Shown: in pieces, positions 1 to 9,477 of the stretch
How positions within the stretch are numbered: the first letter of the stretch is position 1
How the letters are laid out: each line of letters opens with the position of its first letter
NCBI GenBank assembly: GCA_016866255.1
Contig: VGMY01000008.1
Coordinates: 16,266-80,265 of the forward strand
Origin: Bacteroidota bacterium
Lineage (GTDB): Bacteria; Bacteroidota; Bacteroidia; Flavobacteriales_D; Crocinitomicaceae
DNA length: 64,000 nucleotides
Reading direction: 5' to 3'
The notes under the pieces: model-generated
Databases searched by the model: none
The model's input: only the letters and a program-made list of their open reading frames with translations
Told to the model about the DNA's origin: nothing
Translations under genes and position numbers: made by a program

Positions 1-3000
1 CTCCGGCTCCAATAATCAACAACAAAAGGAATCCAAACAATACTCTCAAGTATTTTTTATCGGTAAGATAACGGTAATACCATGGGAATTTGGTGCTGAA
101 TTTCTTTAGAGTTTCTCGAACGTTATCGATGTGATATTTGGTAATAAAATGTTCGATTAAGAAATCGTAGGCATTGTGTATTAAATTAACGGGCTTGTGT
201 TTGATGATTTGCGAAAGCTGAAAATCAACCGTTAATTGATAAAGTCCTATCTTTTTTCCTTCGGCGTTGGGAAGATTTTTTACAATGGCCGAAATTTCAT
301 CTTTCGATTTACCCTCCGCAAAACGAATTTCGGAATTTAATTCGTATAATTTTTCGAGGGTTTCCGGTTTATTCAGCGAAAGCCAATAGAAGTATTTTTC
401 GTAGAACGAAGACCTTACCGTATTGGAAACGGGATCATCCCCAAGTGCGTCTACTTTATCCTTGAGTTCCTGCCAGTCGAAAGCCACTGAGCTATTAATC
501 AATTGATTGCATGTAGTAATGTATTGATTTTGGAGTTTCGATTCATTGCCCGTTTCACTCTCTTCCAGAAGCGCTTTAATTTCCTTTCGGAAAAAGGCCA
601 TTCGGTTTTTATAATAGGTCTTAAATCCTGAAAAAACGTCTTTAAGTCTCACTTGGTAATACAGTGGCAGGCGGTCCACCAACGACAAAATGCCGCCCTG
701 TCCAGTAAGCGCTTCGTATTGTTTAAGACTTAATTCAATTTGACTTTCAACATCATTTACCGGCAAAGAAATTTCGTCGGAAATGTTCGGAATAAAGGCA
801 GCGATTTTCTCGCGAAGTGGTGCGGTATCAAACCGATCATCGTATACGGGAACTAATTTTAATTGATTTAGAATTTCCATCACGAGACCCAAGCTTTCCT
901 CCAGTTCTTCGGTATCGTTGAAGTTGATGTACAAACTAATCAACCGTGCCAATTGAAAGATTAATGCGTTCAATCCTAGGATGTATTCGTCTTCCTTGGT
1001 TGCTGGATTTTGGTGACACACCACTTCCATTTGAGCAAAGCGATTTAAGCGAATGAAGAGCATCTCGAGTGAACCTAATTCCTCGAACAGTTTAAGTTCG
1101 TTGATAAAAGGCTCAGGGACGGCTAATAAACCATTGTCTTCAGTTAAGTTAAGGTTTTCGATGTTTTTAATGATCCATCTGGTCTGATCGAACGGTAAAT
1201 TCGGCAAAGATTTTACATCCAAGTCGAGTAAACATTTGATCAACCTTTGACGTTCAATAGACTTGGCACTTGACGAATTCTCGTTCTTATTGGTAGCAGC
1301 AATTTTACCGATAATGTCGTATTTTGCCTTGCGTAAATTTTTGCAATTTTCCCCAAAAAGTTGTTTAACTATTTGTGGTTTATTTTCCGAAAAATAGGTG
1401 GTTAATTTTTCAAGGGATTTACGGGAGTTTGCGTTCAACTGAACATCGAAGATTTGCTTAAAATCGGTCTTTTGGAATTCGCGCAAAGCCTCCATACTCA
1501 ATGCCCCCGGATTGTCCATTTCGAGCAAGTGGAATAAATCGTCCGCATAGTTCTTGATGCTGTTATACGAATACAAGGGTATCTCTTCAAAGAAAGGTTC
1601 ATCCCATTGTTCGTATTCAATGGCATCCACTAGGTCCGAACAGTCGGAAGATATTTTTACGTTACCTGTAAAAAACGTTTGAATGGACTGAGGAGAAAAC
1701 GCCTGACTGAATACGCTCTGATAGGCCAATAAGGAGTAAAACAAATCGGAATTCTTGATGTCCTTTTCGATTTTTATGAAGAGCAACGAAAACGATTTTA
1801 CTGGTAGGCTTTTGCTCGCATCGAGCATGGTTCTTGCGAAGGTCGGATTGATGTAGGGCTCCAACTTTTCAATTAGCTCGTTTTTTTGGTCGTCAAATGC
1901 CCTTGAGTGAAAAAAGGAAAATCCTTCCGCAATGTATTTCGCTAGCAAAGCACTCCAATGACGAACTTTTACAATAAAGGCATACTGGGAAAAGGAAATC
2001 CGATGGAGTTCCATCATGAAATCTTTGATGCGATCCGAATTGATAAATACGTCGTTGCTGGGTTCGGTCACCAATGCTTCAATATGGTTTCCTGCCGTTT
2101 CCACCCATTCTTTAATGCTTTGCACATTTCGTTCGCTTAAGTCATGCGTATGGTCAACATAGGAGTTCAACAGAAATTGAACCTGTTGTACGCCCAATCC
2201 AATGTGGTATGCGTCAATCTGGGCATGCAGTGAGGCATTGTCGTTTGTTTTGTTGAAATAGGGCCGTTCGTTCAATGGAAGTTCTTGCGCCGCTGACAAT
2301 CCTTCTTGCGATTCAACACCTTCCGACGCTAACTTAAACTTTTGACCGTATTCATTCCACAAGCGATAGGCAAAGATGGAGGCATCAAGGGTTTGGTGGT
2401 CCAACAAGCTTCCGGCTCGGGGAACGTCGATGATGGTGAAATTGTGGGTTCCACGTCCATCATACCATGGGTCGTTTCGGTGAAATCCAACCCTCGGGGT
2501 GCCTTCACTGCCTTTTACCATGGACTCGATCGCTGCCGTTAGTTCCGGATCATATTTGTGGGCTAAAAGGCCTTTGATTTCCAAACTGTCTATGTACAAT
2601 CCCAATCCTTTTAGGTGATATGGGAGGTTGGAAGGAACGCTGATGATGGATTTATTAGGATAGTGCAAGCATGTGAGAACAAACCCTCTTTTAAACAAGG
2701 TATTTCGACGATCGCCGCGCACCCAATATTTCCACAGGAAACTCTTGGCCTCTTTTGAAATGATGACTTCAACCTCGTCGAATCCTCTGGTCTCGGCGTT
2801 GTAAAGTTCCACAATTCCAGTAACTGAGTTTTTAAAATCTTCTGCGTACTGATGCGCATCGTTGATGATTTTGTCGCAATGAGGTTTCAGGCTTTCAACC
2901 TCTTCAAAGCCTTCGTTTGTCCAGGGGTTTTCTTCTTTTGCTGTTACCTTTATTACTGCTTCGATGAAAGACAATCCGTCTCGGAGGAGGGTTTCGTTGA

Positions 3001-3520
3001 ACCCTTGCGTAAAGGCAATGCCGTAATCAATGTTGGACGTATGGCTTAACCAGAGCGAAGCAATACCAACGGGATGTTCTGGATCGAGGATGAGTTTTCC
3101 TAAATCCACCATGCTAACATAATCGCAAAATAAGCCATCGTATGCACTGAACAGTTGGCCTTCGAGATACTTTTGAGCAAAATAAACTGCACTTATCGCA
3201 TCCAAATCGGGCAAGAAATGCGTCACAATATGCATTTCATCCTTGCCGAGGCAATGTCCCAGATAGGTTTCCGCATGTTGAACAACAATGGACGCAACGC
3301 ACTGGTTACTGTATTCACAACCGGGCTGATGATGGTCGATAATTCCGGGTTGAAGTAAGTTGCCTGTGTCCAAAATGACCGTCTGATCCGCAGGAAGTTT
3401 CAATTCCACAGCGTTGGGATTGTCCCGCGTACCAGCATTGTATTCTACCTTAAACGTGTTTTCTTCAAGGTCATGAACCGCTTTGGCGCCCGGGGGGATA
3501 AAATGGTAATGAAACTTCAT
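1..3520 (-). CDS. Very large hypothetical protein, N-terminal 1173 aa only (C-terminus lies left of the window). It has N-terminal DHH/DHHA1-like phosphoesterase motifs, a long helical body and a hydrophobic helix at the window edge.
   Basis: Not in the supplied ORF track because no stop lies inside the window. Manual reverse-complement translation from ATG 3520..3518 stays open for 1173 codons down to position 1. An in-frame TAA lies 16 codons upstream with no alternative start between. N-terminus is MKFHYHFIPPGAKAVHDLEE. Motifs: VILDTG-x9-IIDHHQ (DHH codons 3329..3337), THFLPDLDAISA (3188..3220) and DGRGTH (2444..2461). LRVLFGFLLLLIIGAG is encoded at 2..49. No P-loop seen. Confidence 0.8.
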   Translation of the reverse strand, partial: MKFHYHFIPPGAKAVHDLEENTFKVEYNAGTRDNPNAVELKLPADQTVILDTGNLLQPGIIDHHQPGCEYSNQCVASIVVQHAETYLGHCLGKDEMHIVTHFLPDLDAISAVYFAQKYLEGQLFSAYDGLFCDYVSMVDLGKLILDPEHPVGIASLWLSHTSNIDYGIAFTQGFNETLLRDGLSFIEAVIKVTAKEENPWTNEGFEEVESLKPHCDKIINDAHQYAEDFKNSVTGIVELYNAETRGFDEVEVIISKEAKSFLWKYWVRGDRRNTLFKRGFVLTCLHYPNKSIISVPSNLPYHLKGLGLYIDSLEIKGLLAHKYDPELTAAIESMVKGSEGTPRVGFHRNDPWYDGRGTHNFTIIDVPRAGSLLDHQTLDASIFAYRLWNEYGQKFKLASEGVESQEGLSAAQELPLNERPYFNKTNDNASLHAQIDAYHIGLGVQQVQFLLNSYVDHTHDLSERNVQSIKEWVETAGNHIEALVTEPSNDVFINSDRIKDFMMELHRISFSQYAFIVKVRHWSALLAKYIAEGFSFFHSRAFDDQKNELIEKLEPYINPTFARTMLDASKSLPVKSFSLLFIKIEKDIKNSDLFYSLLAYQSVFSQAFSPQSIQTFFTGNVKISSDCSDLVDAIEYEQWDEPFFEEIPLYSYNSIKNYADDLFHLLEMDNPGALSMEALREFQKTDFKQIFDVQLNANSRKSLEKLTTYFSENKPQIVKQLFGENCKNLRKAKYDIIGKIAATNKNENSSSAKSIERQRLIKCLLDLDVKSLPNLPFDQTRWIIKNIENLNLTEDNGLLAVPEPFINELKLFEELGSLEMLFIRLNRFAQMEVVCHQNPATKEDEYILGLNALIFQLARLISLYINFNDTEELEESLGLVMEILNQLKLVPVYDDRFDTAPLREKIAAFIPNISDEISLPVNDVESQIELSLKQYEALTGQGGILSLVDRLPLYYQVRLKDVFSGFKTYYKNRMAFFRKEIKALLEESETGNESKLQNQYITTCNQLINSSVAFDWQELKDKVDALGDDPVSNTVRSSFYEKYFYWLSLNKPETLEKLYELNSEIRFAEGKSKDEISAIVKNLPNAEGKKIGLYQLTVDFQLSQIIKHKPVNLIHNAYDFLIEHFITKYHIDNVRETLKKFSTKFPWYYRYLTDKKYLRVLFGFLLLLIIGAG

Positions 3521-3536
3521 GGTTTGGTTGAGTCGA

Positions 3537-3544
3537 CAAAGGTA
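3537..3544 (-). promoter_or_regulatory. Candidate Bacteroidota sigma-A -7 box (TAccTTTG on the minus strand) for the giant minus-strand gene
   Basis: Exact match to the TAnnTTTG consensus, 16 nt upstream of the ATG at 3520. Confidence 0.35.
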
Positions 3545-3598
3545 GATAAATTGAACAAATAATGATGTTTATGTGGTATTAAGATGGATCAAAATAGG

Positions 3599-3606
3599 TA
3601 TGTTTG
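3599..3606 (+). promoter_or_regulatory. Candidate -7 box (TAtgTTTG) for the HEPN-discoidin gene
   Basis: Exact TAnnTTTG match 14 nt upstream of ATG 3621. It argues for the 3621 start rather than the track's GTG at 3573. Confidence 0.35.
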
Positions 3607-3620
3607 CCTTACAGAATATT

Positions 3621-6600
3621 ATGAACATGAATATCGCGAACCAACTCCCAAAGAACCTTGAGAAAACGATCAGCGATTTAGCGAGGGCACGTGAAAAAGC
3701 CGCCAAACAAAAGTATTTATTGGACCTTGGTGAAAGCCTCGTAATGCACTTATGTTCGTTTGTTTTAGGCGAGTACAAAGAAGCGGGCTTGGTTTCAATC
3801 GAACTTGAGAAGTCGTTTTTAAAGAATGGTAAAAATGTCAGTTTTGGAATTTACCTGGGTTGGCTTCGTGAGTCCTCCAAGTTTTTAAATCAACAAAAGC
3901 ACCCCTCAGAAATTCAAGATCTCTTACACGGATCAAACGAACTTCTTGAATTGTCGAAATTCGTTAAATCCTATGGTGCACTGAAATTGGCGGTAGAGAA
4001 CGATCATACGAATTATGCGGAGCTCATTTCGCAAGCCCTAAAGAATAACCTTGGAAAGGTAAATTTGTTAGAGTTTTTTGATGTTTTTATTCAACTTAGG
4101 AACCGCGTTGCACATCCGCACAAGGAGGTGAAAGGAAAAGTAGTAAGCTGGCCGTTTAGCGAGGAATATTTCGATGCAACAAACCCTTATTTGGAAAGCG
4201 CTTTGAATCAGGTAATTAATGAACTAGGGAAGATTTGGGAGTTTCGTCAGTTTGTGGTGGACAGCAATGAGCAAGGAATGCTTACCTTGATTAGCGAAGA
4301 CAATAACGAACCCATTGAGGTAGCTAAAACGGCTGATTATCCAGAAGGTATTAAGGTATTTGCGGCGAATGACACCGTGTTGCTTTCGGATTGGAAAATG
4401 CTACTTCGCGCGGGGGAGGAAGCCGTTGAGAAAATACGTCAGGAAGAAGAGGAGCTACGAAATAAGGCAACCGTAGAGGACTTGAAACATTCCATTGAGG
4501 CGGCACTAGACGATCAACAAATCAGCCTTGAAGAAATGAATTTCTTTGAGTCGCTTGGAAAAACAAAATTGGGACTTTCCAAAGAGCAAATTAAGCATTT
4601 GATCATGGAGGTAGCTCAAAAAATGGGCATTGAAGATCCCTTTCCTGAGGTAGATAAACGCTTTATTGAGGTGGTCGACCATGCTATAACCACGAAGACT
4701 TACAATGAATTTTTGTTGAAACTTACCGGACAACAATACGGGGTGGATAACGAAACGTTCGATAAGGTATTTTTGGAACGAACCTTTGCCTTGAATGTTG
4801 ACCCGGATGAGGTTCGAAGGAATAAGGTACTGCAGTTTACCTTAGAGGAACTGACCGATTTTCAAGGATTAATGGCAGCCCATAAGTGGTTGATGGGTAT
4901 GGGAGTTTTTAGACACGCAACCAAGGAGAGCATCTTTAAAATAAGGGAAGATTCGTATAAATTCGGCACCAAAGAATATTGGCATCGAACGGCCTTTGCC
5001 GCTTTAGAACATTTCGTTCAAAACCGTTTAAATAAGTTATGCTTGGACGAAGATTCCGAATGGGATACCAAACAAAACAATTGGCAAATTGGCGTTATGA
5101 CGGGGTATGCTTGGTGTACTTTGTATCCTAAGAATCTGCCCAGCAAAAAGATTCTTGCGTTGCATTTTTCGCTTTATTCTTCCGGTGGTGCAGCCATAGG
5201 TTATCTTCCCGATTGGAAAGATTACAAAGACTTGGATAATTATGGACTCCTTCTCAATGTGTTTGTAGAACATTTGAAGTCTTTCGCCATGGAATATGCC
5301 GATGATTTAAAAAAATACCCCAACCTTGTGTTATGGGACAGTTTGAACAATAACACCTATTACTCCTTTACCGAGTCGATGAGCCGTTTTCCTTGGTTTT
5401 ACGACCATTGTTACGGTTTCGATCAAATTCAATTCTACCATAAAGTGGAGGAGATTATTGCTAATCCATCAGTGCTTATCGACAGCTTCGATATCGCGTT
5501 TAATTTGTTTAAAGGGTTGTTTGAAGCGGTCAATCGCGATTATCGCAACATGTTGAACGATTCGTACTTAATTACTGAAAATGAAGCGCTGATTAGGAGT
5601 AAATTAGTCAGTCTTGAGGACCTTTTGACAGAGGTTGGTTTGTCCGGTGCCCCAGAAGAGGACCTTGTTTCAGAACAACCAGCGGAAGAAGAGGAGCGTG
5701 ATAAGGAAAACCAAGATTCAACCGACATCCAAGTTGCAGATGACGGCTTAAAAGGCAGCGTGCATGTTGGGTATTTTGCCCGTGAATTTAAACCAAAAGT
5801 CAAAGGCTATCCTTTGTGCGTGAGTTTTCAAATCAAACAAGACTATTTTAACAACGAACTCAATTATCTAATGTATATTTCATGCGCTGGATATTTGCAA
5901 CCTGAAATCCATGAACCTGTAGAAAGAATCCTTGAGTCCTTGGAAGGACTGTCGTTTGAAAATGCTCGTTTCTACTTTAAACGAAGTAAGTTTTTAGTCC
6001 AATGTAAGGTGGAGGATTTGGAACGATTTGATCCTCGACCCTTAACGGTCTTCTTTTTGAACGCTCTTGCAGAGGCATGTGCAAAATCGTACGTTTCGTT
6101 TCTGGGCTTGAAGTTAACCCAACCTGTGTTATCCCGCTTTGGTAATGCCGTGGTGGATGCATTGGAGGAAATCAATCCGTCACTTCAAAGTCTATTCTCT
6201 AATACCATTACCTGCGAGCGCAATTGGATGAAAGGGTATCGATTCTTGGATTATGTATATTCCGGCAAGGGGGTAGCGCATTGGTTGGGCTGGGGATTGG
6301 AGTTTCAGCAAGATCAAATGATGGCAGGAGTAGTGTTGCACGTCGGAGATTCCCTAAAAGGAGCGCAATTGATGGAACAAATGCACAACAAAGCCAATAT
6401 TGATGCTGCGTGGAAATTGGTAACCAAAGGCGAGGCTTCGTTGAACGATCCTCACTGGATCTTGGGCAATTCTTCGGCAGTCATGACCTCTTCTTCCGAT
6501 TATAACCGCAATTACAAAGCCCACCACGCTTTAATTTCAAACGAAAAAACGTACTGGTGTGCTGCTAAGCAAGACGACAAACAATGGTGGCAAGTGGAAC

Positions 6601-6986
6601 TTCCCGAGGCCATGACCATTTCTCAACTTGTTCTTAAAGGTGCACCTCACGGTAAAAGTTATGTCACACGTTTTAATCTCATGTATTCCGTGGATAAAAA
6701 GAATTGGCAAACGCTCAGTGATTTTAATGGATTGAACGATGGGTTTTCCACCTTAGAACTCACCTTTGAAAGCGCATTCAACGCGAAACTCATTAAAATT
6801 CTTCCAGTAGAATTTGTGGGTTGGCCCGGCATTAGAGTGGACTTTTGGGGTAAAAAAATCGTTCCCTCCAAAATTGAATTGCAGCATTGGGTTCCGGTGA
6901 ACAATGAACAGGAATTAGCAACGGCCGTGGCTGCATTTGAACATAACATCAAGGAGCTTAAAGCCTTTAAAGGCTTGGGTTTATAG
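3621..6986 (+). CDS. Large cytoplasmic protein with an N-terminal HEPN-type (Abi-like) domain, a helical/unknown middle with an acidic linker, and a C-terminal F5/8 type C (discoidin) domain
   Basis: Continuous ORF; the track gives 3573..6986 from a GTG, and in-frame ATGs lie at 3600, 3621 and 3627. VSFGIYLGWLRE starts at 3840. LRNRVAH (an R-x4-H HEPN motif) is at 4098..4115. An acidic low-complexity linker spans about 5646..5747. The C-terminus YWCAAKQDDKQWWQVELPEAMTISQLVLKG...YVTRFNLMYSVDKKNWQTL...AKLIKILPVEFVGWPGIRVDFWG (about 6465..6850) matches the discoidin pattern. No signal peptide and no Walker A motif. Confidence 0.85.
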   Translation: MNMNIANQLPKNLEKTISDLARAREKAAKQKYLLDLGESLVMHLCSFVLGEYKEAGLVSIELEKSFLKNGKNVSFGIYLGWLRESSKFLNQQKHPSEIQDLLHGSNELLELSKFVKSYGALKLAVENDHTNYAELISQALKNNLGKVNLLEFFDVFIQLRNRVAHPHKEVKGKVVSWPFSEEYFDATNPYLESALNQVINELGKIWEFRQFVVDSNEQGMLTLISEDNNEPIEVAKTADYPEGIKVFAANDTVLLSDWKMLLRAGEEAVEKIRQEEEELRNKATVEDLKHSIEAALDDQQISLEEMNFFESLGKTKLGLSKEQIKHLIMEVAQKMGIEDPFPEVDKRFIEVVDHAITTKTYNEFLLKLTGQQYGVDNETFDKVFLERTFALNVDPDEVRRNKVLQFTLEELTDFQGLMAAHKWLMGMGVFRHATKESIFKIREDSYKFGTKEYWHRTAFAALEHFVQNRLNKLCLDEDSEWDTKQNNWQIGVMTGYAWCTLYPKNLPSKKILALHFSLYSSGGAAIGYLPDWKDYKDLDNYGLLLNVFVEHLKSFAMEYADDLKKYPNLVLWDSLNNNTYYSFTESMSRFPWFYDHCYGFDQIQFYHKVEEIIANPSVLIDSFDIAFNLFKGLFEAVNRDYRNMLNDSYLITENEALIRSKLVSLEDLLTEVGLSGAPEEDLVSEQPAEEEERDKENQDSTDIQVADDGLKGSVHVGYFAREFKPKVKGYPLCVSFQIKQDYFNNELNYLMYISCAGYLQPEIHEPVERILESLEGLSFENARFYFKRSKFLVQCKVEDLERFDPRPLTVFFLNALAEACAKSYVSFLGLKLTQPVLSRFGNAVVDALEEINPSLQSLFSNTITCERNWMKGYRFLDYVYSGKGVAHWLGWGLEFQQDQMMAGVVLHVGDSLKGAQLMEQMHNKANIDAAWKLVTKGEASLNDPHWILGNSSAVMTSSSDYNRNYKAHHALISNEKTYWCAAKQDDKQWWQVELPEAMTISQLVLKGAPHGKSYVTRFNLMYSVDKKNWQTLSDFNGLNDGFSTLELTFESAFNAKLIKILPVEFVGWPGIRVDFWGKKIVPSKIELQHWVPVNNEQELATAVAAFEHNIKELKAFKGLGL

Positions 6987-7057
6987 GGGGTGTTGATCAT
7001 TAGATGTTGAATAACTTAAATTTTTAAGTACTTTCGGTGAAACAATTGTATAACGAT

Positions 7058-7543
7058 ATGAATACCCCTCCTCCCGAAGTTCCTAAAAAAGTAGAATTAA
7101 GCAAAGTCGTCATATATTCTCTGGTGGGATTATTGATTGCGGGTTTGATTTTTCTATTAGCTAAGTCATTGTTGGACCAAAAGCGCGACACGGAGCAACA
7201 AGCCAAGGCCTTTAAAGAACAAATGAAAGAATTGAAGTCAGAATTGAAAGCTATGCAACAGAATTATCGAAGCATGACGAATAAGCGCGATTCCTTACAA
7301 GGCTGGGTAGACTATTACACACCAATGCGCGCAGTTATTTTCAATGCAAAGCTAAGAGACCGCGTCCTCGAGATTACGGAGTTTAAGCCTGGAGATGTCG
7401 CTAAATTTAAAGTGGACTCCACCAGTGCAGTTATCGTGGAGGTAAAAGTAGGAGGAAATGACCTCAGTTATTACGTAAATTATTTGGTGAAAAATCGCAA
7501 AGGACAACTTATCGAAGTTTCGCCTTACGAATTGTATCGTTGA
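7058..7543 (+). CDS. Small single-pass membrane protein with a coiled coil and a small C-terminal beta-rich domain (hypothetical)
   Basis: The track ORF starts at GTG 7037; the first ATG is 7058 (MNTPPPEVPKK). TM helix VVIYSLVGLLIAGLIFLLA, then the heptad-like EQQAKAFKEQMKELKSELKAMQQNY, then KPGDVAKFKVDSTSAVIVEVKVGG...LIEVSPYELYR. Same strand as the HEPN gene, 71 nt downstream, with no hairpin between. Confidence 0.6.
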   Translation: MNTPPPEVPKKVELSKVVIYSLVGLLIAGLIFLLAKSLLDQKRDTEQQAKAFKEQMKELKSELKAMQQNYRSMTNKRDSLQGWVDYYTPMRAVIFNAKLRDRVLEITEFKPGDVAKFKVDSTSAVIVEVKVGGNDLSYYVNYLVKNRKGQLIEVSPYELYR

Positions 7544-7585: not shown

Positions 7586-8443
7586 TTAATGCCTCATTAA
7601 CACCTGCTTCGTTCCTTCTTCGATTCGTTCACAGATTTCATCTAAAGGCAGATCGTTGTCATCCCTTCCGAAGGGGTCTTCTATTTCCTCGGCCAATATC
7701 TCCATGGATACCAGGGCATAAAACACAAACGTTGAAATCAATACCGACCAATATTCGAATAATTCTACAAAAGCAAGCGGCATGGTCACTACGTAAATGA
7801 AAATGAATTTTTTGAAAAATAAACTGTAAGAAAATGGAATTGGGGTATTCAAAATTCTTTCGCAAGCCCCTAAGCTGTCGATGAGATTATCTAAATGCCT
7901 ACTGAGTTGTTGCCATTGTATCGAGTCAATTCGGTCGGTGACCCGTAATTCATGCAGTGATTTACGCAGCTCATGCGCAATCCACAACGGTTGATTCCCT
8001 GCTTTTGATGATTCATCCAGTGGAAAGGATAATTCAAGTTTATTGCGTCTTAAATGTTCCTTCATGCTCTTAGAAAAAGCTGTGATAAGTTCCACGAATT
8101 GGCTCCGTTCAGCAGTGTTTAATTCGAGGGAGGAGAGCAGACTTGATAAATTGCGGGTATCATTCACCACTGAACCCCAAAGTTTGCGTCCTTCCCACCA
8201 CCGGTCATAGGCCGTATTCGTTCGAAATACCAAAAGCAATGATATCACAAATCCCAATAAGGAATAGACCGAAGTTAAATTCTTTAATACGGATGAGGTA
8301 GGATAAAAATGCAGTTCCAAGAAAGTGATGATGGCAGTTAATGCGGCAATGTATATAAGCTCTTTCCATAAAATACGAACGGTGTCGCTTTTGTGAAAAG
8401 AAAATATAAACGTCAACCAGCTCTTGGGGTTGTATTTTATCAT
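7586..8443 (-). CDS. Bestrophin/YneE (UPF0187) family anion channel homologue
   Basis: 285 aa with several TM helices. RTNTAYDRWWEGRKLWG and the C-terminal EDPFGRDDNDLPLDEI are typical of bacterial bestrophin homologues. Confidence 0.75.
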   Translation of the reverse strand: MIKYNPKSWLTFIFSFHKSDTVRILWKELIYIAALTAIITFLELHFYPTSSVLKNLTSVYSLLGFVISLLLVFRTNTAYDRWWEGRKLWGSVVNDTRNLSSLLSSLELNTAERSQFVELITAFSKSMKEHLRRNKLELSFPLDESSKAGNQPLWIAHELRKSLHELRVTDRIDSIQWQQLSRHLDNLIDSLGACERILNTPIPFSYSLFFKKFIFIYVVTMPLAFVELFEYWSVLISTFVFYALVSMEILAEEIEDPFGRDDNDLPLDEICERIEEGTKQVLMRH

Positions 8444-9477
8444 TCCTTGATAAAGTGCTTTTTAAGTTTTACCTGATCTTTATTGGTTTCAATAAAATAT
8501 AAACCATTCGAAATATTTCTGAGATTCAACCTCGTGCCTGTGAGTGTAGCTATTTTTTCAACCATTACGTTTTGTCCATAGGCATTAAGCAAGGAGATTT
8601 GTTCGGGAAGAGCGTTTTCAATAATTATATGATCTGTACATGGGTTGGGAAAGATATTTACCGCAGGAAGCGCTTCTTCCTCTATTCCCACCCCAATTCC
8701 ATCTAGTTCCGTCCATCTGAAGATTTTGGGAGCGCCAAGCGTATCGAAACTCATTTCCGCAATGGCCAATTTGCCACCTTTCCCCACCCAAGAATAGCTG
8801 CCGGTAGTGCCCGAGCTCGTGCTCACCAAACTCCAGGTAGGTGGAAATATCGGAAGAGCCCATATGGAATCGGTGTAGTTGTCTGTGGTGTAAATGCGTA
8901 ATACATCGTAGGTTCCTTGCGGTGTGGTGATTTGCCCCCACGCATCGGTGGTATCATGCACCATCGAAGAACGCTTAAAACGTATTTGACTTACTAAGGG
9001 ATTGATTGCCGCTCCGGGTACAATCACATCAATCACGTACAAATCGTTGAAACTTGAACCAAAGGTTCTCGGAAATTGATGCAAGGTTAAATCAGGGTTG
9101 AACACCGCATTGATGATTCCTGAACCTAATAAATCTCCCGAAAATCCTTGAGTGGTGAACGATTGAGCACTTTTGTTAAAGTACAAATAACTCGCGTTGT
9201 CGTTGGTCATGGCCATGTTGGAATTCCCAAATTGATTTGCGCTCGGCGTTGAAGCTACCGATACCACGCTGGTATTCTCCGAGACAACATAGTTGCTAGT
9301 TGCCGTGAAGTTCCACGTCTGGTTCGGTCCGCTGCCTCCCGGACCAGGCAATACCGTCATCGTATCGGATTTTCGCGGAATGTTGTCGCCCACGGAAGGC
9401 ATGTCGTTTTGATCCAAGGTGATTTGGGCACTTAAGGTCCCAGCCATCATTCCAGCAAGCAGTAAAAAAGGTTTCAT
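8440..9477 (-). CDS. Secreted protein with a T9SS C-terminal sorting domain
   Basis: Signal peptide MKPFLLLAGMMAGTLSAQ. The C-terminal ~80 aa (VNIFPNPCTDHIIIE...ISNGLYFIETN) resembles the Por secretion tail. 4-nt overlap with the downstream gene. Confidence 0.7.
   Translation of the reverse strand: MKPFLLLAGMMAGTLSAQITLDQNDMPSVGDNIPRKSDTMTVLPGPGGSGPNQTWNFTATSNYVVSENTSVVSVASTPSANQFGNSNMAMTNDNASYLYFNKSAQSFTTQGFSGDLLGSGIINAVFNPDLTLHQFPRTFGSSFNDLYVIDVIVPGAAINPLVSQIRFKRSSMVHDTTDAWGQITTPQGTYDVLRIYTTDNYTDSIWALPIFPPTWSLVSTSSGTTGSYSWVGKGGKLAIAEMSFDTLGAPKIFRWTELDGIGVGIEEEALPAVNIFPNPCTDHIIIENALPEQISLLNAYGQNVMVEKIATLTGTRLNLRNISNGLYFIETNKDQVKLKKHFIKE

Follow-up and report, generated by a model that had tools for sequence, protein, structure and literature searches.

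The locus and its divergent giant genes

The stretch of DNA considered here (the window) comprises 64,000 nucleotides (nt) of contig VGMY01000008.1 (positions 16,266 to 80,265, forward strand; assembly GCA_016866255.1) from a bacterium of the Bacteroidota family Crocinitomicaceae. Its left end holds two very large genes, A and B, which diverge from a short spacer, and a smaller gene C that follows B (Table 1); the A/B pair may, as we discuss below, constitute the core of an immune-like module. An earlier sequence-only reading of this DNA had described two divergent genes of more than 1100 amino acids (aa) each, a 100-base-pair (bp) control region with one TAnnTTTG box per strand, a hydrophobic helix where gene A runs off the window, a gene B product devoid of a signal peptide, a gene C on the same strand as B without an intervening hairpin, and the lack of a P-loop in both large proteins. 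All of these statements hold: the helix is the first of about six C-terminal hydrophobic helices, hydropathy analysis of the gene B product recovers neither a hydrophobic segment nor a signal peptide, no terminator-like hairpin is found in the B-C gap (6986-7058), and the Walker A motif is absent from both proteins. The minus-strand box (TACCTTTG, 3537-3544) and the plus-strand box (TATGTTTG, 3599-3606) each lie ~15 nt before the start codon, of gene A and gene B respectively, and are plausible candidates for Bacteroidota -7 elements; because the octamer is only slightly over-represented across the window (81 observed versus 64 expected), they are statistically not strong, and the boxes are plausible rather than proof.

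The metagenome contig L001 (loci are referred to by such numbers; L001 coordinates are those of the window plus 6428) encodes an identical gene B product and reaches 6.4 kilobases (kb) further left, giving gene A a full length of 1421 aa. The homologues of gene A form 61 clusters of full-length proteins of ~1320-1430 aa and those of gene B form 90 clusters, all of ~1100 aa, with identities in both families going down to 24-28%. Open reading frames (ORFs) of this size, each with 60-90 clusters of full-length homologues, are far beyond chance.

Table 1. Features of the A/B locus in window coordinates.
Feature	Position	Strand	Remarks
Gene A	1..3520	minus	ORF from ATG 3520 to window position 2 (1173 aa), running off the window
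Start of first gene A transmembrane helix	2..52	minus	aa 1157-1173 and beyond, from hydropathy
Conserved N-terminal module of gene A, aa 1-400	2321..3520	minus	DHH-like domain and second conserved domain
DHH motif I of gene A, H101-x3-D105-x-D107 (THFLPDLDA)	3200..3220	minus	invariant or near-invariant in the family
D62-H63-H64 triplet of gene A (IIDHHQP, aa 60-66)	3329..3337	minus	at least 90% conserved; preceded by DTGN at aa 51-54
Divergent intergenic spacer, 100 bp	3521..3620		one TAnnTTTG box per strand
Gene B	3621..6986	plus	1121 aa from ATG; 1137 aa as the ORF from GTG 3573
All-helical, HEPN-like N-terminal domain of gene B, aa 1-206	3621..4238	plus	AlphaFold2 secondary structure
R160-N-R-V-A-H165 of gene B (Rx4H motif), aa 160-165	4098..4115	plus	R160, N161 and H165 in 38/38 family members
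Variable alpha/beta region of gene B, aa 711-940	5751..6440	plus	candidate specificity region
Discoidin (F5/8 type C) domain of gene B, aa 955-1064	6483..6812	plus	Pfam E = 2e-21
Gene C	7058..7543	plus	161 aa; a 168-aa ORF begins at 7037

Genes A and B lie side by side in at least 12 distinct loci and in three arrangements: divergently (the window, L005, L009-L012 and L038), as A then B (L018, L041/42 and L127), and as B then A (L039, where a BBP2 porin follows). Co-occurrence of the pair in other genomes, a point raised by the sequence-only reading, is thus borne out; moreover, both loci found through gene A alone (L038 and L127) also carry gene B alongside. The partner of gene A in L041/42 and L127 is an 833-844-aa relative of B, which keeps the HEPN-like, helical and first alpha/beta domains and is devoid of the variable region and the discoidin domain. 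Since A pairs with this short, discoidin-less version, the core of the module is A together with the N-terminal ~650 aa of B. That adjacency is kept over deep divergence (28-35% identity) and changes of orientation argues, on comparative genomic grounds, that A and B are functionally linked. The alternative, that they are functionally unrelated neighbours whose resemblance to a system is coincidental, could appeal to the weak annotation of both orphans and to the occurrence of B without A in about half of the loci; however, it is very unlikely, as the adjacency survives this divergence, the three gene orders and the shortening of B, and as a CorA-like membrane protein usually takes the place of A where A is absent.

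Architecture and evolution of the two proteins

The AlphaFold2 model of the 1173 aa of gene A within the window (predicted local distance difference test score, pLDDT, 85) shows an alpha/beta N-terminal region of ~400 aa followed by ~770 aa of helices, and the last ~270 aa of the full-length protein contain about six hydrophobic helices. Based on these features, gene A is predicted to encode an inner-membrane protein in which an N-terminal DHH-like module is joined by a ~770-aa helical solenoid to a C-terminal membrane domain of about six helices. The N-terminal module and the membrane domain are its best-conserved parts, with 43-51% mean pairwise identity in the former against 21-27% in the solenoid, the least conserved part. 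The Pfam DHH profile is matched at E <= 1 by 32 of the 33 family members (best E = 6e-6), the match of gene A spanning profile positions 3-78 only. The segment T-H-F-x-P-D-L-D-A-I-G/S-S (aa 100-110) aligns with motif I of the NrnA-like DHH protein of Bacteroides fragilis (4py9/3w5w), and H101, P104, D105 and D107 are conserved across the gene A family, as motif I of the DHH family demands; apart from this alignment to 4py9, a sequence-profile search of PDB with the gene A N-terminus gave nothing useful. There is also a second, very conserved domain (aa 233-400; WKYWVRGD ... NDPWYDGRGxH), for which we recognised no relatives. It is kept in the most divergent family member, P0148, which has lost DTGN, the DHH triplet and motif I and, to judge by these losses, may be an inactivated phosphoesterase variant. 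The same combination of DHH-like and NDPWYDGRG modules is found in P0150, an 877-aa single-pass membrane protein encoded in an unrelated gene cluster (L126:101-11614), beside unannotated genes of 522, 1019 and 1388 aa and with no relative of gene B present.

In the gene B model (pLDDT 84.7), the all-helical N-terminal domain spans aa 11-206 and is followed by a small beta unit. Next come a helical region at aa 258-475 and an alpha/beta domain at aa 476-650; past a disordered acidic linker, another alpha/beta region (aa 711-940) leads to the discoidin domain. The N-terminal domain is marked by the invariant residues E38, Y52, E63, R160, N161, H165 and P166, of which R160-N161-x3-H165, situated at the end of helix 149-164, agrees with the HEPN pattern Rx4-6H with a polar residue after the arginine. 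HEPN_RiboL-PSP is the only recurrent non-discoidin Pfam match in the family, and its sub-threshold match in the member P0065 ends exactly on the R-N-x3-H motif. Sequence-profile searches of PDB with the gene B N-terminus and with the extended superfamily gave no match, and scans against PHROGs and NCBIfam yielded nothing beyond the discoidin domain. A single match at E = 0.24 hints at a possible TerB-like repeat at aa ~290-335.

A profile of gene B aa 1-262, used in a full HMMER scan of 1.84 billion cluster representatives, recovered 113 of them at E <= 0.001. We scanned 60 of the more distant relatives, each of at least 300 aa, for Pfam and PADLOC domains. The R-N-x3-H signature is at least 90% conserved among these 60 (R-N-x3-H-P being nearly invariant in that alignment), and the majority have no Pfam or PADLOC match. 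A minority, with 1-4 examples of each kind, are fused to NB-ARC, AAA_16 or nSTAND3 modules with TPRs, to Eco57I/MmeI type IIG restriction-methylases (PADLOC E = 3e-154), to DndF/SspF-like domains, or to protein kinase, GHMP kinase, DUF3320 and FGE-sulfatase domains. Such a spread of fusions is what one would expect if the domain were a mobile effector of biological-conflict systems. Thus, the N-terminal domain of gene B is best described as HEPN-like, a putative effector domain with relatives in bona fide defence proteins.

The other end of the protein evolves differently. The clear C-terminal discoidin domain noted in the sequence-only reading is confirmed by Pfam, by PDB profiles (E ~1e-44) and by Foldseek (TM-score 0.84 to the discoidin domain of CASPR2). 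The preceding alpha/beta region (aa 711-940) has the lowest conservation among the folded domains (27% mean identity) and is swapped between paralogues and alleles. The two tandem full-length gene B copies in L005:10001-16875 are 100% identical in protein sequence over aa 1 to ~330 and only 28-50% identical over the remaining ~780 aa; their nucleotide identity is 96.8% over 1.3 kb, including ~90 bp of upstream/promoter sequence. The window gene B is itself a mosaic, its middle resembling copy 1 of L005 (63-69%) and its discoidin end resembling copy 2 (83-90%). Relative to L008, the closest genome, it is 84% identical over aa 1-340 and 99% over aa 341-650, the flanking genes being 90-96% identical. 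This cassette-like mosaicism suggests that the C-terminal half of gene B, presumably the ligand-binding one, recombines and diversifies. Two diverged homologues, with 46% and 34% identity to the window gene B, also occur on different contigs (L018 and L032) of one metagenome-assembled genome (MAG), CAMCQL01, and the former adjoins a gene A; a single genome can therefore harbour members of these families as paralogous systems.

Tandem alleles with a shared N-terminus and a variable, recombining, receptor-like C-terminal half resemble the evolution of bacteriocins and polymorphic toxins. This raises the alternative that B is an exported bacteriocin-like or contact toxin, secreted via A or the CorA-like protein together with a DUF481 barrel, with the discoidin domain binding target glycans, the HEPN-like RNase killing, and C or another neighbour conferring immunity. 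The inner- and outer-membrane genes that accompany this large soluble protein, and the usually extracellular location of discoidin domains, would fit such a role. However, B has neither a signal peptide nor the C-terminal domain of the type IX secretion system (T9SS), it has no known secretion ATPase, and its N-terminal domain has relatives that form part of cytoplasmic enzymes by fusion; the lack of an export signal and this cytoplasmic company make a secreted toxin the less likely reading. Further, the putative toxin domain lies at the N-terminus and is conserved, the reverse of polymorphic toxins, in which it is the C-terminal toxin domain that varies; there is no conserved immunity gene, gene C being confined to the closest clade; and the short B relatives, devoid of any binding domain, still keep A. 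We accordingly consider a secreted toxin improbable.

Membrane partners and accessory genes

At least 14 other loci carry a gene B (~30-50% identical to that of the window) without gene A, beside a 442-480-aa protein and a 158-aa protein and, usually, a DUF481 gene. The 442-480-aa partner has a coiled-coil stalk and two C-terminal transmembrane helices, and the 442-aa version matches the PADLOC models of CRISPR-ancillary CorA-like proteins (E = 5.5e-10; 7.5e-11 for the L123 homologue). The possibility that the 442-aa and 158-aa partners represent a split gene A was rejected, with hhalign probabilities below 2% even with the membrane domain included; likewise, the membrane domain of gene A is not homologous to the CorA-like family (hhalign probability < 1%). 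The two-helix organisation of CorA-like effectors is found solely in this alternative partner of the sister loci and not in gene A with its ~six helices. PDB sequence-profile searches with the 158-aa and CorA-like families gave nothing useful, and the gene tables of all loci examined are devoid of cas10 and other cas genes.

In CRISPR systems, CorA effectors have an obligate companion, encoded next to them or fused with them: the DHH phosphodiesterase NrN or, alternatively, a DEDD nuclease or a SAM-AMP (S-adenosyl methionine-AMP) lyase (Chi et al., 2023, PMC10600005). The partner of B is likewise either a CorA-like protein or a DHH-like membrane giant, and this is the strongest single argument that the module follows an immune effector logic, by analogy and not by membership in the CRISPR system.

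Some of the CorA-type loci display further variation. A ThsA-like SIR2 gene (PADLOC E = 3e-33) is present or absent between otherwise collinear loci: together with a 65-aa gene, it is inserted between a leucine-rich-repeat (LRR) protein gene and the CorA-like gene in L006 (7134-8176), L007, L027 and L031, and the insertion is absent in L028 and L033. It looks like a variable defence-gene insertion beside the B module, as judged from this gene order. One CorA-type locus also holds a WYL regulator.

The second recurrent neighbour is an outer-membrane barrel gene. In L001, a gene for a 269-aa DUF481 barrel overlaps the 3' end of gene A by 17 nt, the overlap being 8-17 nt across L001, L005 and L038. 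Counting DUF481 and, in L039, BBP2, the module has a barrel gene beside it in five loci with an A-type partner and in 11 with a CorA-type partner, and DUF481 is missing beside the A/B pair in L012 and L018. To the left of window position 1, L001 encodes the rest of gene A, the DUF481 barrel, a 56-aa membrane peptide, aat and OmpA. Because its gene table holds these genes and nothing resembling a cyclase or other signal synthase, the earlier suggestion that a signal-generating enzyme might lie there is not supported. The 56-aa peptide (L001:4626-4796), with two hydrophobic helices, is conserved between DUF481 and aat in L005 and L009 as well.

Gene C encodes a single-pass membrane and coiled-coil protein of the DUF8429 family, with a transmembrane helix at aa 24-42 of the 168-aa ORF. 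The sequence-only reading had included it, as a small membrane protein, in the module. It exists as such, but as a core component we reject it: it lies beside B only in the closest clade (L001, L005, L008 and L009), is absent in L010, L011, L012 and L038, and its family comprises only 16 clusters. It is therefore probably a lineage-restricted neighbour outside the core module. Beside the A plus short-B pairs, a conserved 95-aa Gly/Ser-repeat protein is encoded (L041:4172-4459, L042:4163-4450 and L127:9552-9839), with the repeat N-[IV]-K-x-D-x-[IV]-R-x-G-[ST]-G-S and a weak Bflower_3 match; it has no counterpart in the window.

A proposed immune-like module and a possible envelope system

We favour, at a little below even odds (a probability of roughly 0.45), the reading in which freshwater Flavobacteriales carry an unnamed immune-like module of the abortive-infection type, fixed in the chromosome, with A and B as its core and, usually, an outer-membrane DUF481 barrel gene alongside them. 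Under this proposal, B would be a cytoplasmic sensor-effector, sensing a cue through its variable C-terminal half, made up of the alpha/beta region and the discoidin domain, and cleaving RNA with its conserved HEPN-like N-terminus once this has dimerised; dimerisation is proposed to be needed for the active site since B has a single Rx4H motif. A would be its membrane partner, anchored by about six helices and presenting the DHH-like phosphoesterase on a long helical scaffold. It could act as a membrane effector or regulator, with the phosphoesterase removing a small nucleotide or RNA-derived ligand, by analogy with the CorA/NrN systems of CRISPR, and would then be functionally comparable to a fused NrN-CorA. 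The domain content, the conserved pairing, the alternative CorA-like partner and the mosaic evolution of B are what the comparisons show; the RNase and phosphoesterase activities, the sensor and killer roles, any signalling molecule and an anti-phage role are what we infer. A more elaborate version, which we regard as doubtful, would be a previously unrecognised immune system that follows CorA/NrN-type logic without CRISPR: a giant soluble sensor B, with its HEPN-like domain and exchangeable recognition cassettes, would be served by interchangeable membrane effectors, either a CorA-like channel with a 158-aa enzyme or one giant protein in which a rearranged DHH phosphoesterase is joined with a membrane domain, and, being coupled to an outer-membrane barrel, the whole could span the envelope.

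The module belongs to no named system, and we found no description of it in the literature on HEPN with discoidin and DHH domains, on RiboL-PSP or on DUF481. Parts of it are akin to four known systems. Gene A unites a membrane protein and a DHH-type phosphoesterase in one polypeptide, which recalls the coupling of the two in the type III CRISPR CorA/NrN effectors (sometimes fused there as well), whose Bacteroides fragilis prototype belongs to the same phylum; in addition, the B partner of the sister clade matches the PADLOC CorA-like models. In contrast to those effectors, the A/B loci have no cas10, other cas genes, CRISPR array, or SAM-AMP or cyclic-oligonucleotide synthase, while gene A has about six helices unrelated to the CorA-like protein, a ~770-aa solenoid between enzyme and membrane, a non-canonical motif order and no DHHA1 domain. 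With the DHH/DHHA1 phosphoesterases (NrnA, GdpP, PggH and RecJ), gene A shares motif I (HxxxDxD, then A-I-G/S-S), with the B. fragilis NrnA-like protein as its best PDB match, and GdpP is likewise membrane-anchored. The HEPN RNases (RiboL-PSP-HEPN, AbiD/F-type, Csm6/Csx1 and Cas13) parallel gene B in the invariant R-N-x3-H within an all-helical domain and in the effector-like N-terminal position; in contrast to them, gene B falls below every HEPN threshold, has no solved homologue detectable by sequence, carries ~900 further residues of unrecognised folds plus the discoidin domain, and has no CARF, SAVED or MNT partner. Finally, in the STAND-NTPase receptors (Avs and NB-ARC-TPR), distant relatives of the B N-terminus hold the same effector position in NB-ARC, AAA_16 or nSTAND3 proteins with TPRs, and gene B follows the same pattern of conserved effector and variable C-terminus; unlike them, it is devoid of a P-loop or NTPase domain and has a membrane partner instead.

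Several observations weigh against the immune-like reading, beginning with the domain assignments themselves. The window gene A matches the Pfam DHH model (PF01368) at E = 0.08 with 13.6 bits, the gathering cut-off being 28.1. D62-H63-H64 and D51 sit N-terminal of motif I and not after motif II, a non-canonical order that suggests a permuted or rearranged site; if all the conserved residues form one metal site, the DHH-like domain may be rearranged or circularly permuted. No DHHA1/DHHA2 (GGGH) domain is detected by Pfam in gene A, the closest feature being the D354-G-R-G-x-H359 motif in the novel second domain, and Foldseek, run with the 1173-aa model against PDB, gave no match at E < 1e-3, the best being generic helical repeats. 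Thus, of the DHH-family assignment in the sequence-only reading, motif I and the widespread, if weak, Pfam matches stand, but the score lies below the cut-off, the triplet is out of order and structural comparison lends no support. The HEPN assignment fares similarly: the R-N-x3-H motif is invariant and its domain is modelled as all-helical, but PF18735 (HEPN_RiboL-PSP) is matched by just four of the 38 gene B members (best E = 0.0058, 17 bits against a cut-off of 28.4) and not by the window protein, and Foldseek with the full-length model against PDB and BFVD, being saturated by the discoidin domain, returned discoidin matches only. No signal synthase is present at the locus, which leaves the CorA/NrN analogy without its upstream half. 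The defence or abortive-infection proposal of the sequence-only reading is partly supported, by the conserved pairing, the HEPN-like motif and DHH motif I; it is weakened by the sub-threshold scores and the position of the D-H-H triplet, and the signal enzyme and a core role of gene C find no support.

The genomic setting, too, gives little sign of a mobile defence locus. Gene B occurs in 30 species of the GTDB species set, all of them MAGs of freshwater Flavobacteriales or Crocinitomicaceae (a few evidently mislabelled), and both families are known from MAGs only. The locus is syntenic in at least seven related genomes, with the module at the same position in L005, L008-L012 and L038, where housekeeping genes border it: aat, OmpA and PrsW to the one side, and bestrophin, COX15, ThiF and TatD to the other. 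Variable presence between close relatives, which the sequence-only reading had raised, is thus not seen in the near relatives sampled; such a fixed, syntenic position is among the conditions that this reading itself had counted against its proposal, although no role other than defence is known for the pair. In a metagenome scan based on bestrophin, 80 loci turned out to carry neither A nor B; among them, only the more distant L043 (bestrophin 80% identical) keeps the neighbouring synteny, with A/B absent beside its bestrophin/COX15 block; with one such locus in 80, the evidence for presence/absence variation is thin. No evidence for a mobile-element origin was found: the guanine-plus-cytosine content of the locus is ordinary, the window holds no tRNA genes or Rfam elements, no integrase lies near the locus, and no A/B homologues were found among the plasmids, phages and viral contigs of PLSDB, INPHARED and IMG/VR. 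PADLOC (PADLOC-DB v2.0) gave no match for A and, for B, only AriA at E = 0.027, which is noise, in keeping with the earlier statement that no named system matches the block.

These same observations, namely stable synteny, vertical inheritance, housekeeping flanks, and the lack of a mobile-element link or PADLOC match, are what one would expect of a lineage-specific envelope or physiological system with no defence role, in which the inner-membrane protein A and its translationally coupled DUF481 barrel act with a soluble glycan- or lipid-binding B. Such a system might maintain the cell surface, take up or turn over nucleotides or nucleic acids, or signal at the envelope, with the DHH-like domain hydrolysing a housekeeping nucleotide. 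The barrel gene, which overlaps the 3' end of A and recurs beside both A-type and CorA-type partners, and the discoidin domain, a kind that usually binds glycans or lipids, suit this function too and add to the case against an immune role. The envelope reading can also draw on L124 (2538-7573) and L125, where a B homologue lies between Exo_endo_phos and Endonuclease_NS genes, with a 1382-aa TPR protein after it and no A or CorA-like partner in the vicinity. On the other side, B has no signal peptide or membrane segment, so that its discoidin domain is most likely cytoplasmic, and some family members match the intracellular Muskelin_N discoidin model (E = 1e-7). Its N-terminal domain recurs in STAND NTPases and restriction enzymes, its alternative partner is of the CRISPR-ancillary CorA type, and tandem paralogues with domain-level mosaicism are not predicted by a housekeeping function. 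Moreover, the family is limited to ~30 GTDB species and absent at the syntenic site in L043, and DUF481 is missing beside the pair in L012 and L018. On balance, we deem a purely envelope-related role unlikely, while regarding it as the main competitor of the immune-like reading.

Were the immune-like reading correct, it would bear on more than this locus. The only known CorA-type effectors with obligate DHH partners are accessories of type III CRISPR systems, and the gating of CorA effectors and their need for a degrading enzyme are open questions (PMC10600005); the A/B family would offer an independent, simpler and CRISPR-free setting for studying CorA-DHH coupling. It would likewise add a widespread N-terminal R-N-x3-H domain to the repertoire of immune effector domains and provide the first functional lead for two orphan families of more than 1000 aa in abundant, uncultured freshwater Flavobacteriales. 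If B makes or processes a ligand that the DHH-like domain removes, the module would constitute a new source of nucleotide- or RNA-derived immune signals. If the envelope reading holds instead, a new trio of inner-membrane, outer-membrane and cytoplasmic proteins would be defined.

Immediately to the right of the module, a bestrophin-like channel gene (7586-8443, minus strand) overlaps by 4 nt the end of a gene at 8440-9477 (minus strand), which encodes a 345-aa protein with a T9SS C-terminal sorting domain at its end. L005 and L009 lack the bestrophin gene at this position, and small-scale gene turnover therefore takes place right beside the module.

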